From NCBI RefSeq assembly GCF_024521635.1, contig NW_026250417.1, positions 744,001 to 808,000 of the forward strand: a stretch of 64,000 nucleotides of DNA, written 5' to 3'. Under the pieces are notes generated by a model. The model saw only the letters and a list, made by a program, of their open reading frames with translations, was not told the origin of the DNA and searched no databases. The stretch is from Tricharina praecox (lineage: Eukaryota). The translations under genes were made by a program, and so were the position numbers. Numbering within the stretch: the first letter of the stretch is position 1; each line of letters starts with the position of its first letter. Positions 18,219 through 36,490 of this stretch are shown here, one piece after another.

Positions 18219-18953
18219 TTACGCCCTCTTCTTGCCCCTCATGTTCTTCCTCCTCTGGCGGATCATGTGGGTGTACTGGTTGTACAATCCTATCTCTGTC
18301 AGCAGTCGTCCCCTCCTCGGAGTAGTGATTCACTTACCAGGTCCGTATGTGGCCAGAATAGCAACCAGAACCCAATAGTAGGTTTCGTTCTTCGCGTAGA
18401 CCTCCGGGAGCGCACGGAAGATACACCACGCCTCACTACCGGCACCAAGGGGATACAAGATGAAAAAGGTATTGTACCTCAACCAGTTGAGGACACCGCC
18501 GCTGCCGCCAGACAGGTTGATCACGTAGTAAGTGTAGCGACAGACCTCGGTGATGCTCCAGGCGATGAGCATGGACGTGTAGGCGTTGCTCTGCTGGGGC
18601 GCCGAGAACCGGTCGCAGACGCCCCACACGAGGAGCAGACGCGAGGCAACCTGCAGGATCGTGGTCGGCAGCGAGGAGCGGAGGAGCCCGAACGCGATGT
18701 GGAAGATCTCGAGGATCGCGAGCGTCTGCACCCATTTCGTGTAGTCGCCGAGGGATTCGTGGATGTGCGTGGGCCCGACGAGAGGGAGCAGGAGCACGGT
18801 TCGCCCGAGGACGCCGGCCCAGAGCGCCGCGGAAAGGGCGTTGTAGGCTATCAGGCTGGAGGGACGCGCCGGGTCAGCATGTGGGAAGGTTTGTGGGGTG
18901 TCGTGGAGGAACTACTAGCGCGTGGAGACCGAGGCTGTTTTTCTACTCTCCAT
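18219..18953 (-). CDS. PHS1: Very-long-chain (3R)-3-hydroxyacyl-CoA dehydratase (PTPLA family), 3 exons
   Basis: RYLIAYNALS, VQTLAILEIFH, TILQVASRL, AWSITEVCRYTYY, WLRYNTFFILYPLG, YTHMIRQRRK. Confidence 0.95.
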
Positions 18954-19378
18954 TGTGGGTGTGTTGGGTAGGTGATTGGGATGCGGAGTTATCGGTGAGA
19001 TGTGAAGAGAGTGTGGGGTGAAGGTTGTGGGGTTTATAGGGATTACGATTGCGAGCGAGGCCAGGTGTTTTTTTTCGTTGGGAAGAACCGTTGGGCCTTG
19101 GGATATGTAGGGCCGGCTGTGGTGAGAACTGGACACTCCGGAACGGGGAAACGATCATCCGGCCAAAAATCCAACACACAATATATCGCAGTGACGATAG
19201 ATATTCCGATGAAGTCGGTCGTTTTACTTTCTTTTTTCTCAGTGCACAGCTATTCCCGGTTCACAAAATACCGGTATTTCCATCCTCAAGACTCGGACCA
19301 TCCGATTCGGATTGCTTATGCTGATCTTGTCTTATAACCTCTTATCATCACCATCATCATCATGCGCTGCTCAGTTCT

Positions 19379-19882
19379 TCAGTCGGATCCGGATTGCTCA
19401 TCGGGTCCGGACTGCTCATCGGGTCCGGACTGCTCATCGGGTCCGGACTGCTCATCGGGTCCGGACTGCTCATCGGGTCCGGACTGCTCATCGGGTCCAT
19501 CTTCAACCGGTGGTAACTCTTTTTCGGGAGCTGAGCGCTTCGGCCAGCTGAAATCCGGGCGCCAGCCGAAATCCGGGCGCCAGCCGAGACTCGGACGCCA
19601 GCTGAGATCCGGACGCCAGCCGAGATCCGGACGCCAGCCGACACTCGGCCGCCAGCTAAAATCCGGATGCCAACCGACACTCGGACGCCAATTGAAATCC
19701 GGATGCCAACCCCCCTCCGACACCCAGGTTGTAATTGCGGGCTGATAGATCTTGGTTGGATCGCTACAACCGGCGAAGTTGCAGGGCCCGGAATTGCTGG
19801 AGCAGATGCCGGACAGATTGCATAGCATGCAGCTGCCCAGCAGGACTGCCAGGGTCCCCATGAATCGTGATTGCGGCTGCAT
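19379..19882 (-). CDS. Small orphan repeat protein (167 aa): hydrophobic/Cys-rich N-terminus, 9 W[RH]P[DS][FVL][GSN] repeats, KR, 6 GPDEQS repeats; candidate secreted peptide precursor
   Basis: Open frame from ATG 19882 to TGA 19379. Both arrays have an 18-nt in-frame period, and the Trp array keeps W and P while other codons vary. A branch point/acceptor (CTAAC...CTACAG) lies just upstream, suggesting a 5'-UTR intron. Confidence 0.7.
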   Translation of the reverse strand: MQPQSRFMGTLAVLLGSCMLCNLSGICSSNSGPCNFAGCSDPTKIYQPAITTWVSEGGWHPDFNWRPSVGWHPDFSWRPSVGWRPDLGWRPDLSWRPSLGWRPDFGWRPDFSWPKRSAPEKELPPVEDGPDEQSGPDEQSGPDEQSGPDEQSGPDEQSGPDEQSGSD

Positions 19883-20857
19883 CGGTTCGTGTTTCGTGTG
19901 CCGTGTGTCGTGTGTCGTGTGTCGTCCTGTAGGAGTGTTGGTTAGTGGAGGCGAGGTATGGTAGGTATCAGACGGGTTGGAGCACGGTGATTTGCTATAT
20001 GGCCTGGAAAGACTCGAGATGAAGGATGAATTATGAGTGATGGTGATGGTGCATTCAACTTGCTCCGCTCTATATGAAGTACCTAAACGACTGGTGAATA
20101 CAACCACAAAGGTTAATGCAGAGGGAAGGTGGAATGGGGGCACGTAAGGTATTCCGGCGAGTGGTGCCGGGAGTCTGAATGGGAGGACGACAATGAACGT
20201 GACCGGCTGGGTGAATCTAAATCACTCGACAGGACCTGGCGAATGGTGGCAGCAGGAGCTATTGGGAGTTGTGTATCCACCTCCCGGCGGTTTGCTTGCG
20301 CAACCTATTCACACATAACCGTCTCACCCTGCCGCACAACAACAAACAAGCGTTTGTTTCATAATGAAGCATTCGACCTATCTACGCAGATCAAGGCATA
20401 TCACCAGGACCCGAGTCCCTTCCCGATCAACGATAAAACAAAAATCACAGCGCGGATCTCCCCAAAGCCGCCAAAGACAATTAGAAAACGCACCAAGGGT
20501 AAACTCGAATCCACCCCTGCCCTCACCGTGGTCAGAGGCCGCCCGTGAGTGATCTTCCATGCCTTACACTTGCTTACTCTACACACATACATCATACCGG
20601 TACATGCCATCCAGGCTCCAGCAACCAAGTTGCAGATCACAGCCGCGCTTACTTCCTTCCTTCCTTACTTAATTACTTACGATCCAGATCCAGGTACGGT
20701 ACGGTACGTCGGTACCTTATGTACCCAGGTATCCACCGAAATATCTTCCAGATCCGCGCTTACGCTCGACTGCACACTGTACCATGTCGATCGTCGGGCG
20801 CGGTATAACCACATAACCACATAACCACATACCTAGTACAGTACTAATAGTACAGTC

Positions 20858-21133
20858 ATGCTCTCGCAAGACATGACAAGGCTCGAACAACATATCATCT
20901 CACAGTTTACTGACCGGACGATGGAGGATCGCAGTGCCTTATCTGCTATATCACAAGCGAAAGCGAATGGCAAGGCCGGGCCAGGCCACCGTGGCGTTGT
21001 TGGATTTATATATGGACGGATCGGGGAAATATTTCTCTGGCCTTGGCTCAGGAACTGGAACGAGAGCATGTATGCATTTCCTCCGATTACGTGTTGACAG
21101 TGCTGCTGCCGGTGCTGCAGGGTCGGGTCGTGA
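20858..21133 (+). CDS. Possible small hypothetical protein (~74 aa, 2 exons)
   Basis: ORF MLSQDMTRLEQH...WLRNWNES with GTATGC donor at 21070 and CTGCAG acceptor ending 21120, giving ...SMVGS*. No recognisable domain. Confidence 0.3.
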
Positions 21134-21410
21134 CTCGTACGGCGGCGGAGGAGGTATCTACACTTACATTTGCGCTGGGCGCGGGGCAGCAGGTAGGCAC
21201 ATATCCAGGTACGGCATCGTAAAAAAAAACGGTAGGGTATGTACGCATTGTGAAACTGAGTAAAGCACGCGCGACATCGGCAGGATACCTAGGTTACATC
21301 ATAAGAGTTTATCCCCTGCTCTCCAACCAACCCGTTTCCACAGTCACGACCCCGGATGAATGTATCACGTATCATGTATGATATGTACGATGTGTATACC
21401 CAACCGCGAA

Positions 21411-22337
21411 TCAGTACAGGAAAAGCCTATCCTTCGCATCCTGCACCACCCAGTCAAGCCCTTCGAACAGGTTTTCGCCTGTCATGGCGCTGCAAGGCAG
21501 GATCGTCCATTTGTGGGACTTGATGTCGTCGAGTCGCAGGCCCTGGATGAATCGTCAGCTTCGCGGTTCTATCTGTAGACGAAATTACGGTGCTCTGTAG
21601 GAGCTTCATGATCCTCACGTGCGTCCTGATGCCCAGCGATATCAGGGGGAACGTGGGGGTGGAGGGGGGTATCGAATGCCTACCTCTCGGATCTCCTGAA
21701 GGTCCATACACCCACTAACATCGGTCTTGTTGGCGAAGACGAGCAGACTGGCACCGAGTAATCTCTGCAGCACGTACCATAGTCGGCAAAACCGTCTTCA
21801 GCTAGAATCGAGAGGGAGGGCAACGTACATACCTCTTGCTGAAGCAGGCCGGCAAGCTCCTCGGCACAATTTTCGAGACGGAAACGGTCGGTGGCGTCGA
21901 CAACCCAGATCAGCGCATCCGTCTTTTCGAAGTAGTTGCGCCAGTAGCTTCGCAAAGTCTTTTGGCCGCCGACATCCCCTTTGGCCGCGTGTTAGCTTCT
22001 TCTTCGATGCGGGAAACGAGAGCCCCCCCCCGTAGCGGCTTCCACCACTCACAGATGTTCAACTTGTAGCTATAGATATCACCGGATTAGCTACCGGCCA
22101 CAACATCTATCGCCCATCGCGCGGCCGAACACACGCGGACGGACGGACGGCGCATGCAAGCACGCACCCTTGGTAGTCGATAGTCTTGATGATGAATCCC
22201 AGCGTGGGACTGACGGTATTGACGTCCTCGTTCATGATGCACTTGACAATGGTAGTTTTCCCCGCATTGTCGAGGCCGAGCATCAGCACGCGCATCTCCT
22301 TGTCCTTCAGCTGCGCCTTGCGCAGGATGGAGAGCAT
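21411..22337 (-). CDS. ARL2: ADP-ribosylation factor-like GTPase 2 (Cin4/Alp41 orthologue), 5 exons
   Basis: [35 protein letters not shown], micro-exon [41 protein letters not shown]. Confidence 0.97.
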
Positions 22338-27032: not shown

Positions 27033-27184
27033 TGCATGCCCCCAAACACGTGCATGCCCCCCAAACACGTGCATGCCCCCAAACACGTGCATGCCCCCAA
27101 ACACGTGCATGCCCCCAAACACGTGCATGCCCCCAAACACGTGCATGCCCCCAAACACGTGCATGCCCCCAAACACGTGCATGC
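27033..27184. repeat. 18-bp minisatellite TGCATGCCCCCAAACACG x8 plus a partial copy
   Basis: Near-perfect tandem array; the second unit has one extra C. Confidence 0.95.
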
Positions 27185-31881: not shown

Positions 31882-34800
31882 TCAGACATTCATTGCCTCC
31901 ATGGCTTGTGGAAGTCCCATCAGCCCCAGACTTGGCTTCCCCGATGGTTGCCACAGCGCGGGAATCTTGGCGTCGTCCCAGGTCCTGAAGAGCGCCTTAA
32001 ACTCCTTTGGTGCGTCGCCCAATATGACGTTGCCCGCTGGGATGAAAGGTCTGTTTTCTACCGATGTCGCAAGAAGGGCGTACTCCTGCGTAAACTGGAG
32101 TGCTGCCTGGAATTCTTCCCGCCTGGACTGGGATTGCGATCCGATGACACTGTGATGTTCGATCAGTATACACGCATATAGCAACAGTAGGGGGTTAGAC
32201 CCACATGTAAAACTCGAAAAACGCATCGGCCACGTAGATTTCACGAGGATCCAGATCGTCCTGACAGAACGGCGTAATCTCGATCACCTTACATGATGTC
32301 AGCTTCATGCACAACGTACGACAAAACAGATAAACTTGCCTTTGACTGCATTTGCAGATTCACTTTGAAAAGCCTAGCAGCATACTTCTTGCTAGAAGGC
32401 CTTAGGTTCCAGTAATCGGCTGACTGGACCTCGAAGCGCCCGCCGAGAGCCTCCCAGAAGGACTCTGGCTCCTCTCCTTCCAAACACTCGACAAGTTCAC
32501 CCAGTCCAGATATCTCAAATCCGACGAGCCGTGCCACTCCAACCTCATCCGGCATGGCACCCTTTCCTTTCCACAGATAGACAGCTGCCCCTTGCCGGGA
32601 GAGAACATACGAAAACCCGGAGCAAAGACTCGAAGCGTCAAGGTCAACCTCATCGAATGCCACCCCGCCAAAGAAGTTCCTCCCGCAAAGCATAAATGAG
32701 CTATCGATAGGTGAATCGTTGTCCCGGGTACCTCGCCGTGTTACGAGGATGCCGCCGATAGCGTGGAAAAACGTCGCATTCTCACGGCCTTGCTTCAATT
32801 GAACCTGTACTAACGTAAGCAAACAAACATACGAACGAAGTCGAAGGGGCAATTACGAGTCTCCCGCCCTCTTGCCTTGCCGCCTTGCGTGCGAATAGCT
32901 GGGCATCCTCAATTTCACTTTCGGAAACCATGGATCCGCTCCACAAGTACACCTCCGCCTCGTTCTTCCCGAATGCATTCTCAAAGCGATGAGTGCACAG
33001 ATACATGCAGTTGTCAAAGAAAACATGATGCTGTTCCTTGGGAATAGGAGTGAGTCTGCCATAGCCGTCGATGTCGGAGACTTCAAAGTGTGTAGTCTTC
33101 ACCTTCTCAGCCGCGACAACCGGGTTAGATGCAAGAATACTCATAATGTCGAAGTCAATCTTATTGGCACGGGATGAAGGGCCTGTGAAGAATTTGGACA
33201 ACAATTGGGTGTCATCATTTTCGGCAGCACTAATATCCGGCGTCGGCAGCAAAGGTGAAACAGATCTTGAAAAAAGCCTGGGCATCGGCTTCTCATCGTC
33301 ATCTGGCTCCATCACTGAGACAGGAGCTGATAGTCCTGAAAATCCCGAGATTCCAAGGCTCTTTCTATCGCTATCACGCTTGGGCAACCTGATGGGCGAC
33401 ACTCCGGCGCTTGTGATGGAGTCCACCAGGTCATGGACTATGACTGGCGAAGACTTCAGTGCACTCAATGAGGGCTCTCGGGTAAGCACGTTTGCAGAGG
33501 GTGTCTTGATAGGAAGCGGGGTTTTAATCGCAGACTCCTGCACTGTCGCTGGCTCAATGGAGAACTTCTCATTCTCTTTAAGGCTGGAAGCGGAAATATT
33601 TCTCAGGACTGGCGACTTGGCGGGGGTAGGTGACTTCGGCTTTTCAGGCTTAGGGAAGGGACTGCATACGACCGGGTCCACTGTTAAGGTGCTCTCTGGC
33701 TTGGAATCCTCTGTAGCAGGTTGATCGACCTTGGTCGGTGCCCTCCTCTTAGGCCCTCTAACTCTTCCTTTGGTGATCTGTAACGATTATTAGCCATAGA
33801 ACTAGAGCTGTAGGTATTCACATACATGATTGAGGGGAACCGCGGATTGCGCAGAACCTCCAGTTGATTTGGATGCATCCTCCGCACCTCTCGACGACCT
33901 AAAGGCATTCCCGCTCGCAGCCGTAGGTGGTCCTCGTGACAACAGACCCAAAAGGTTTGGATTGAACCTTTCCGCAAGTGTGCCTTTCTTCACAGGCTCG
34001 ATCTGTGACGGGGAGAACCTCTTCTTCTCAGGCTCTATCCGTACAGGAGCGAACACCTTCTTCTCGAGCGCCGAGGAGGGTAAGTTCTTCTCGAGCACTG
34101 AAGATGGTAGCTTTTTATCGAATACTGAAGGGAAGACCTTCTTCTCGGTCACTGGCGAAGGAGTCTTCTTCTCAGTCACTGGCGAAGGAGTCTTCTTCTC
34201 GAACACAGATCTCAATTCCACGGGAGTCTTAGATCTCGGCTCAAAGGGTCCAGGAGTTTTGGATCTCGTTTCCACCGGTCCGGGAGTCTTGGGCCTCATG
34301 TCCGCCGGTCCGGGAGTCTTAGACCTAGTTTCCACCGGTCCGGGAGTCTTTGGCCTCATGTCCGCCGGTCCGGGAGTTTTAGACCTCGTTTCCACCGGTC
34401 CGGGAGTCTTTGGCCTCATGTCCGCCGGTCCGGGAGTTTTAGATCTGGGTTCCATTGGTCCAGGAGTCTTAGATCTTGGCTCCACCGGCGAAAATGACGA
34501 CGACGTGGGTTTCACGGGGGAGTCTGAATGTCTGAGCGAGCCCTTCGCAGAAAGCAAGCTCTCCTTCAGGGGATCTATTTTCGGCGCCTTTTGGACTCCT
34601 CCCGTATTGTTCAGATTCGCCTTCCCAGCCAGAATATTGTCCTTCAACTCGTTGGGCGCCCTGTAGTTCTGTGTTCTTGTCGATTTCAACCGTGACATTG
34701 CATTGAGGAACGGAAGCTCTTCCTTCTCATCGCCTTTACCGGAATGCGGGCGAGGTTTCAACGAAGCGCGGAAGTTGATCTGTTCCTTTGGTTTTGATGT

Positions 34801-36490
34801 AGGTTTGGCGGAAAGGTCAATCATAGAATTCCTATTGGATCCGGTCGACGACGGCAATGTATTCGTTCGGTTAAGACCATAGATGGCTGGCTTATCAGCA
34901 GCCGACAGCTTCTTTTCTGTGTCATCATCCCTTTTGTACGAGCCCGTTGTCTCGGGTGCATTCTTCTCATTCGCTTTTTTCAACGACTCGTAAGAAGGTA
35001 TTGGGTTTGGATATAGAATGGGAGTCTTAGCAGGAAGCACCGGGGGTTGGCCGAATGGCGAGAGTTCAACAGGTTTTGGTTGTGGCTTTGCAGGCGCCAT
35101 CGGGGGCTGAGGATTGTCGGTTCCCTTCTTCAAAGCAGTCTCCAGCCAGGACGATTTGGTTGGGCTCCATCGTTTGGGCTCAAAGGTTTTCCCAGGAGAA
35201 GCCGGTGGAGTGCTATCTCGTCGTGAGTATCGATTTGTGAGTCCTTCGGACGTGGTGTTAGAACGACCGCGGATTGGTTTGGCGACGGGTTCTGCTTCGG
35301 GCTCGGATGAAAGGTCTTCGGGAGCAGGAGTTGATCCCCTAGATGTTGGCAACAGGACCGGCTCATTGCCTCTGGCAAACACCGAGTTGCTCCTCGAATG
35401 ACCACTACCACTGCTAACTGACTCCGCCCTACTTCCATATCTCTTGTGCATGGATCCTTCCCTTTTCAACCTCGCACTCTGTACAAAGCCACCAACACCT
35501 TTTGTTGGACTTGGGGTACGGTCCCTCGAGTCAGGTGAGAGGCGTTCTTGACTCGGGCTCATCAGGGGAGCGGCACGAGAATCCTCGACTTCAAATCGAC
35601 CGGAAGCATTGCTAGCTATTGAAGGTGATCGCGCAAGATCCGATGGCGGAAATCTCTCAGACTTGAGGGAACCGCTTCTAGCGACTCTTGTAGTTGACAG
35701 AGAATCGAATGCCGTACGTGGAGAAGCTTTCTGGAGTTCTGGGATCTCGGCCTGCATGATGCTGCTATCACCAGAGGACGGTGACATCCCGGGCAGGGAC
35801 ATTTTAGAAACACTTTCCATCCTCTCCTCTTCCGCTTTCCTTAGAGCACCGGATGTAGCAGCCCGTTCCCGTGTTTGACTGAACCATGTGGGCTCCTTCG
35901 ATTGAAGGTTCGCAGTGATCTGGGCTCGACTCTTTTCTGGTGAATCCGTCGATTCACCAGCATTAGGAGATGAAGGTGATAACTTCGGCAACCCCCCATA
36001 CACACTGCCATGGAAGGATTTTGGACGACGCTGCCAGGAGAGTGTGGGTGTCCGTCTCAGAGGAGCTTCGCTACTGGTTGTTTCAGTGGCATCAGTAAGC
36101 TTCCCCGTCAACTTCGCCAGTGCCGCATTCGTGCCGGTATCAACGCGTTCGGCGGTATCGTCGCTATCCCGGGTTTCAGGTCGGGAGACAGCGGATTTCA
36201 GGCTAATCGGAGTTCCACCTGGCGAGTCCTTCTGTGGCGAAAGAGAGCGAGCTCGTTCTGCGGGCGTGGTACATCATCAGCCAACCATCGGTAGTGGTGA
36301 ATTGGATATCGATAGAATCTTCAAGAAATAAATACGTACCGTCTCGCCTAGCCCGTCGGGCTTCTCGCCCGGCCAAGATCTCGGCTTCGAGCTGCCTCGC
36401 CCTATCGGCATCCTCCTTGTCTCGTTTATCGCCCAATTCCCGTATCCGCAAGAGGAACTCGCTAACATCTGCACCGCCGTCTCCTTCCAT
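31882..36490 (-). CDS. DUF4045-domain protein with C-terminal gelsolin/villin-like repeats (putative actin-associated), multi-exon
   Basis: N-terminus DVSEFLLRIRELGDKRDKEDADRARQLE; SPTKGVGGFVQSA, RWSPTKSSWLETAL; C-terminal VYLWSG, KQGRENATFF, SLCSGFSY, VYLWKGKGA, EGEEPESFW. Confidence 0.85.

Follow-up and report, generated by a model that had tools for sequence, protein, structure and literature searches.

A probably young, lineage-restricted gene for a small Trp-Pro repeat protein in a Pyronemataceae-like fungus

The locus, its protein and its matches

The window (the whole 64,000-nucleotide stretch of DNA that was analysed) contains a 167-codon ORF on the minus strand. Its translation is exactly the 167-residue protein of an earlier note on this DNA, here called P0001. 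The ORF is present as a single copy in a genome of 38 Mb and 104 contigs (G000), and no paralogues of P0001 were found in that genome. It lies between two spliced genes on the same strand, one for an Arf-family GTPase, which we take to be ARL2-like, and one for a PHS1/HACD dehydratase. The best named matches of the latter are from Sphaerosporella (74%) and from Wilcoxina, Geopyxis, Trichophaea and Pyronema (66–69%), so the host is Pyronemataceae-like, Pyronemataceae being presumably the family of these genera. The features are as follows; L009 and L011 are metagenome loci of close relatives, and P0162 is the protein encoded at L011.

21411–22337, minus strand: upstream neighbour, a spliced Arf-family GTPase gene (PF00025; splice joints; syntenic in L009 and L011)
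19883–20250, minus strand: upstream non-coding flank, presumably promoter and 5' UTR (66% identical to L011, with 9 indels; contains a 7-bp microsatellite, 19887–19925)
19379–19882, minus strand: single-exon ORF for P0001, 167 aa long (present once in the genome; L011 orthologue at L011:1762–2310, tblastn E 1.7e-35)
19796–19882, minus strand: residues 1–29, which may be a signal peptide or signal anchor (they include a basic residue, a hydrophobic core and Cys18/21/27)
19727–19795, minus strand: residues 30–52, linker (Cys34/39 and a conserved IYQPAI motif; 12-nt in-frame indel relative to L011)
19541–19726, minus strand: residues 53–114, Trp-x-Pro hexapeptide array (18-bp minisatellite; 11 Trp in register, the first unit degenerate)
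19535–19540, minus strand: residues 115–116, KR dipeptide, unconserved (AAG CGC here, aligned with AAG CCC in L011)
19382–19534, minus strand: acidic Pro-rich tail, net charge -16; its (GPDEQS)x6 repeat is encoded by the other 18-bp minisatellite (19391–19498)
19217–19378, minus strand: probable 3' UTR (RNA-run contig 19217–19435; stop context GAC TGA homologous in L011)
18219–18953, minus strand: downstream neighbour, a spliced gene for a PHS1/HACD very-long-chain 3-hydroxyacyl-CoA dehydratase (PF04387; splice joints)

The layout given in the earlier note is borne out by the translation. The hydrophobic, Cys-bearing leader is present; the ten Trp at exact 6-residue spacing occupy residues 59–113, and W53 (in TWVSEG) is an eleventh in register; the single KR is at 19540–19535; six GPDEQS units start at 19498; and there is no dibasic site between the Trp units. 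The array of residues 53–114 has a net charge of 0, plus two His, and the repeat block is 39–47% Pro, Gly and Ser in both species.

There is no strong splice donor in 19251–20000. The frame remains open for 113 codons upstream of the start codon, with no further ATG, but a longer N-terminus was rejected because L011 carries stops in that stretch. The best 12-residue hydropathy is 2.18 in P0001 and 2.72 in the L011 protein, compared with 2.32 and 2.53 for two evident signal peptides from the same genome. AlphaFold2 gave no confident fold (mean pLDDT 47, pTM 0.19, from a two-row alignment); the model, which places a helix at residues 5–23 with low confidence, was too poor to be of use in a fold search.

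Further neighbours encode a Cas1 acyltransferase and alpha/beta hydrolase-like, NmrA-like and arabinonolactone oxidase proteins; no known peptide-tailoring enzyme was found among the 8 neighbouring ORFs or exons scanned. Elsewhere in the window, a long ORF at 33802–35820 (minus strand) contains coding repeats of 30, 27 and 36 bp (RSKTPGP-type units). To judge by the ORFs downstream of it, it may form the 5' portion of a gene for a gelsolin-repeat protein.

Protein searches found no homologue of the whole protein. An exact look-up of P0001 gave no match, and neither P0001 nor P0162 had a match in the ESM Atlas. The only Pfam hit to P0001 was PF07271 at 16 bits, below the cut-off of 40, and P0162 had no Pfam match. 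Among 5.8 billion proteins, 0 of 2782 candidates (91–293 aa) matched P0001 and 0 of 368 (127–2000 aa) matched a profile of the two leader sequences. There were also no matches in viral contigs (0 of 69 candidates), in prokaryote genomes (0 of 34) or in PDB sequences. The 1.84 billion cluster representatives yielded 39 matches to the repeats only (28 of the 39 were read), and none of these scored with the leader profile (best E 0.25). The best of them, P0002 (671 aa), is unrelated; its 12-residue repeats of PDFSW type, of which there are dozens, are presumably a convergent Trp-periodic repeat.

As no protein match covered the leader, loci were fetched from metagenomes by way of PHS1. Six were obtained – three close (90–92%) and three distant (49–59%). 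Two of the close loci, L009 and L011, extend upstream of PHS1, and the third, L010, does not. The three distant loci gave no match to the P0001 gene. The L011 orthologue is the sole homologue found outside this genome, in searches that covered protein collections, viral contigs, prokaryote genomes and the metagenome loci. P0001 and the L011 protein make up a protein family of two species that had not been described; the family is new in sequence and common in kind. A literature search, whose coverage left out most subscription papers, brought up no account of a protein of this sort.

Repeat arrays and the relatives

Both arrays have an 18-bp period in TRF: the Trp array (19543–19708) has 9.2 copies with 77% matches, and the acidic array (19383–19498) has 6.4 copies with 97% matches. 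Across the nine full Trp units, 9 of the 18 bases are variable, with three in each codon position. Pro is encoded by CCG in every unit, although the third base would be free to change. The earlier note had read invariant W and P among drifting codons as a sign of selection; the argument fails because the variable bases are spread evenly over the codon positions and CCG is fixed throughout. That the arrays have 3n periods says little: of 25 hand-listed TRF rows in the window with a period of at least 12 (coding and overlapping rows included), 14 are 3n.

Other repeats occur near the gene and elsewhere in the window. The 3' flank holds a degenerate version of the acidic-array unit (19301–19319), and the 7-bp microsatellite is just ahead of the P0001 start codon. 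A pure 18-bp minisatellite at 27033–27184 (8.4 copies, 98%) is open in all six frames and lies within plus-strand ATG ORFs of 124 and 137 codons, with no sign of a gene. A hairpin between the two arrays was considered and discarded, the best arms being 23–24 nt at only 71–74%.

L011 encodes a syntenic 182-aa orthologue, P0162, with 45% identity; this evidence is one sequence from one metagenome contig. The start codon and the hydrophobic leader are common to the two proteins, as are Cys18/21/27/39, the IYQPAI motif and the Trp at the head of the array (W53 and W59). In the leader, 20 of codons 1–29 are identical. Codons 1–59 differ by one indel, of 12 nt, while 9 indels fall in 304 aligned upstream bases, and the length of 7 of these is not divisible by three.

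Beyond these codons the same Trp-x-Pro DNA has been amplified differently. The L011 array has 4.2 copies of a 45-bp, 15-residue unit and a net charge of +6 over 72 residues, and one of its Trp units has Cys in the Trp place. The position homologous to KR is KP (AAG CCC), and there is no dibasic site anywhere in the L011 protein. A functional KR site, as suggested in the earlier note, is not supported by the orthologue. The L011 tail is acidic, Pro-rich and non-repetitive, with a net charge of -11 and two PDExS motifs.

The L011 ORF stops at a TAG where a Trp unit would begin, and the codons that follow read R-P-K-P-W (L011:2302–2437). After the TAG and a 1-nt phase change, a PVEDGPD...ALD* segment is homologous to the end of the tail in the window, including its stop. 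An intron joining the ORF to this downstream acidic frame was sought and rejected – none of 10 GT-AG candidates had a branch-site match or a strong donor. The tail has therefore been truncated in that lineage, or the single contig contains errors. An A5 run at L011:2332–2336 is a candidate site for the phase change. The TAG may be a nonsense change, an assembly error or a site of stop-loss A-to-I editing, which occurs in Pezizomycete fruiting bodies. The earlier note had named frame-breaking indels in the arrays of relatives as the mark of a neutral minisatellite; the L011 leader and array stand in frame, and the disrupted frame is in the L011 tail.

L009 retains ARL2 and PHS1 with no trace of the gene between them by blastn, tblastn, nhmmer or profile search. 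The interval of about 3 kb (L009:2700–5670) is unrelated to the window and to L011, and G000 contains nothing that matches it; its GC content drops to 36–46% distally. It appears to be a replaced stretch in an otherwise syntenic block. An alternative allele was looked for there, and none of its 14 overlapping ORFs of at least 50 aa is similar to the gene. The dS of PHS1 across the three close genomes is 0.44–0.49 (0.44 for L011 and 0.49 for L009); they are about equidistant, so gain and loss of the gene cannot be ordered.

Frame retention and transcription

The leader has a dN/dS of 0.81 (54 codons, Fisher p 0.36), and PHS1 exon 2 has 0.09. Changes in the leader fall almost evenly on the three codon positions (16/16/13), and its DNA is 73% identical to L011, against 66% for the flank. 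By these measures the leader appears to be under no measurable purifying selection at most residues.

Retention of the frame is a different matter. With 20000 neutral simulations of codons 1–59 at the observed flank indel rate, the ATG, absence of stops and frame were all kept in 0.08–0.13% of runs. ATG, open frame and phase were retained in 0.7–1.2% at half that rate and in 5–9% with no indels. The model uses 0.33–0.44 substitutions/site, an indel rate from one alignment and an assumed kappa. Four of the five Cys and the two Trp were retained in 0.6–2.3% of simulations, in a post hoc test. A crude signal-peptide rule is satisfied by P0001 and the L011 protein and by 7 of the 222 window ORFs of at least 60 aa, and it survives in 7–14% of stop-free neutral simulations. 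Retention of the frame under neutrality is unlikely (p about 0.001–0.01). The picture is one in which selection would act on frame and architecture rather than on most residues.

RNA data were available as assembled contigs for four runs, three of which have spliced contigs of both neighbours. The contigs are strandless, their depth cannot rank genes, and DNA may be present in such a run. In run X3, two perfect contigs fall on the locus, 19739–19896 (depth 2.4) and 19217–19435 (depth 4.2), and both end at the arrays; there is no cover in 20056–21595, and the neighbours' contigs have depths of 212–307. In runs X4 and X5 both neighbours are again covered by spliced contigs, and among the contigs listed there is none on the ORF, to which no evidential weight was given. 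None of the data sets listed as containing the sequence is recorded as RNA. These data are a weak hint of transcription. In PMC3778014, orphan genes of Pyronema confluens are described as short and of low expression, with more than 20% upregulated in sexual development.

Together, the L011 orthologue, the unlikelihood of neutral frame retention and the RNA contigs indicate that the ORF is probably a real gene, young and restricted to its lineage. The earlier note's general proposal, that of a real repeat protein, probably secreted and with arrays that stay in frame, is upheld to this extent: the L011 orthologue is in frame, and both proteins satisfy the crude signal rule.

Known precursor classes and possible functions

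KEPs are defined by at least three repeats, each of at least 8 residues, between KR, KK, RK or RR sites (PMC7329392, section 13); P0001 has one dibasic site and P0162 has none. KEPs and the dikaritin precursors of ustiloxin, phomopsin and asperipin-2a (PMC7329392, PMC9233826) are, like P0001, small proteins in which a signal-like N-terminus is combined with acidic segments and with imperfect tandem repeats that include Pro and an aromatic residue. P0001 is unlike them in its contiguous 6-residue units with no dibasic sites between, its unconserved single KR and its lack of a linked UstYa – the genome's only UstYa/DUF3328 match is on contig C61, and the window is on C12.

MSDIN (amatoxin) precursors, processed by prolyl oligopeptidase (POP), have a 10-aa leader (PMC9233826), and the likeness there is that Pro could delimit 6-residue Trp cores in P0001. 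P0001 has no MSDIN leader, many cores rather than a single Pro-flanked one, a signal-like N-terminus and an ascomycete host. Furthermore, no prolyl oligopeptidase N-domain (PF02897) was found in a six-frame search of the possibly incomplete genome that ignored introns and may miss split exons.

Ascomycete alpha-type pheromone precursors (Ppg1, Ccg-4, PpgA) have KR-flanked copies with X-A/X-P spacers in front of each. P0001 is like them in being putatively secreted, small, repetitive and fast-evolving, with Trp-containing units. It is unlike them in having no KR-flanked copies and no such spacers, in a unit length that differs between two close species and in a locus that is missing from a third. 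The copy and spacer features are partly described in PMC7329392. No printed Pezizomycete pheromone sequence for comparison was found in the accessible sources, including parts of PMC13152902, PMC3864998 and PMC7898904 and 12 of the 17 supplements of PMC3778014.

The taxonomically restricted orphan small proteins of Pezizomycetes (PMC3778014) share with P0001 short length, rapid evolution and the lack of homologues beyond close relatives, and their low expression may have a parallel in its sparse RNA contigs; they are a category rather than a family, and no sequence link to it was found. P0001 is lineage-restricted in this sense, with one orthologue and other matches to repeats only. Elastin-, resilin- and prion-repeat-like proteins are self-assembling Pro/Gly-rich aromatic repeat proteins. 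P0001 resembles these in having aromatic residues and Arg at fixed spacing among Pro, Gly and Ser, Pro-x-x-Gly and no confident fold; the likeness is of composition only, with no homology.

The earlier note had offered three functions. Pro-directed cyclisation of hexapeptides, if taken as the work of a prolyl oligopeptidase, is disfavoured by the lack of a PF02897 match and by units of 6 residues in one species and 15 in the other. The antimicrobial Trp/Arg block, with its positive charge offset by an acidic tail, is a poor fit because the array has a net charge of 0 here and +6 in L011; the KR that would separate the two parts is also unconserved. The third option, a self-assembling repeat protein, is by inference the best.

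The reading we favour, at a probability of about 0.45, is a young, lineage-restricted, secreted and disordered repeat protein that acts uncut as a multivalent polymer of aromatic and Arg stickers. A fast-evolving gene of the Pyronemataceae-like fungus would encode a small protein directed into the secretory pathway by its hydrophobic, Cys-bearing N-terminus. The mature part would be disordered, with Trp, Phe, Leu and Arg stickers spaced by Pro, Gly and Ser, followed by the acidic Pro-rich tail, which may keep the polymer soluble in transit. In-frame minisatellite turnover could freely change unit length and copy number. The uncut polymer, acting through aromatic and cation-pi contacts, might self-associate or coat wall polysaccharide or another surface, possibly at one developmental stage. 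The shared leader, Trp-x-Pro block and acidic tail, with units of 6 and 15 residues and no common cut site, suit such a polymer better than a set of fixed released peptides.

A less probable account, still to be taken seriously, is that the ORF is a proto-gene or a decaying gene, weakly transcribed, under little or no sequence selection and open by chance with the help of 3n-period minisatellites. The non-significant leader dN/dS, the absence of the gene in L009, the stop and frame change in the L011 tail and the very low RNA depth all agree with it, as do the 3n periods common in the window and the array at 27033–27184 that is open in all six frames. What speaks against it is that start codon, open frame and phase have all survived together; the Cys and Trp retention and the signal-like character add to this. 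Alternatively, the gene may encode a multi-core precursor from which a secreted Pro-specific or other protease, not Kex2, frees short linear or cyclised Trp-Pro peptides. This is rather improbable. Cuts after Pro would give hexapeptides of a shared pattern in both species (core S/D-F/V/L-G/S-W-R/H/L-P), and imperfect repeated cores after a signal-like leader recall precursor design. However, the spacer fragments are unlike between the species, there is no PF02897 match (with the reservation about split exons), no tailoring genes were seen among the tested neighbours, the sole UstYa lies on a different contig beside a precursor of its own, and the POP-processed MSDIN precursors (PMC9233826) carry a 10-aa leader. 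More doubtful again is the bolder form, a new fungal type of multi-core precursor with no Kex2 sites or linked UstYa, in which an unlinked Pro-directed protease would free and perhaps cyclise the contiguous Trp-Pro cores, while in-frame turnover of the minisatellite would adjust the set of peptides from one sister species to the other.

The N-terminus could also be an uncleaved, possibly acylated signal anchor that displays the repeats on a membrane. The 19-residue hydrophobic stretch (1.68 here and 1.97 in L011) has three conserved Cys and is predicted as a helix at residues 5–23. The N-terminus is more conserved than is usual for signal peptides. The small residues C-S-S before residue 30 form a plausible cleavage site in both species and count against tethering, for which we see a slim chance. 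Processing by Kex2, as in a pheromone-like or dikaritin-like precursor or an antimicrobial block freed from an acidic pro-piece at KR, is the least probable of the readings. It could draw on the signal-like leader, the repeats, the KR between array and acidic tail and the charge of the relative's array, and PMC3778014 puts the failure to identify pheromone genes in P. confluens down to their weak conservation. The array of P0001 is itself uncharged in sum, there is no dibasic site between its units, the KEP definition (PMC7329392, section 13) does not describe it, and the gene is missing at this site in L009. The orthologue, with no KR or any dibasic site, appears already to have largely refuted Kex2 processing, and a Kex2 peptide precursor is not supported by the sequences compared here.

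Lineage-specific secreted repeat proteins are common in fungi. This locus offers a clean case of a young fungal gene in which sister species have re-amplified the repeat block with a 6- or a 15-residue unit and yet preserved frame and architecture. It is useful for studying how genes arise and how repeats drive protein evolution in Pezizomycetes. Should the repeats be cut without Kex2, they would point to precursors that by definition escape KEP mining; should they assemble, the protein would be a natural Trp/Arg/Pro polymer.

The UstYa/DUF3328 gene on C61 (G000:C61 about 939300–942743, L026) is head to head with a multi-exon repeat precursor that carries a signal peptide and has nine near-identical cores ending in FYW, then RR. 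The two are apparently a canonical, undescribed dikaritin-type pair.
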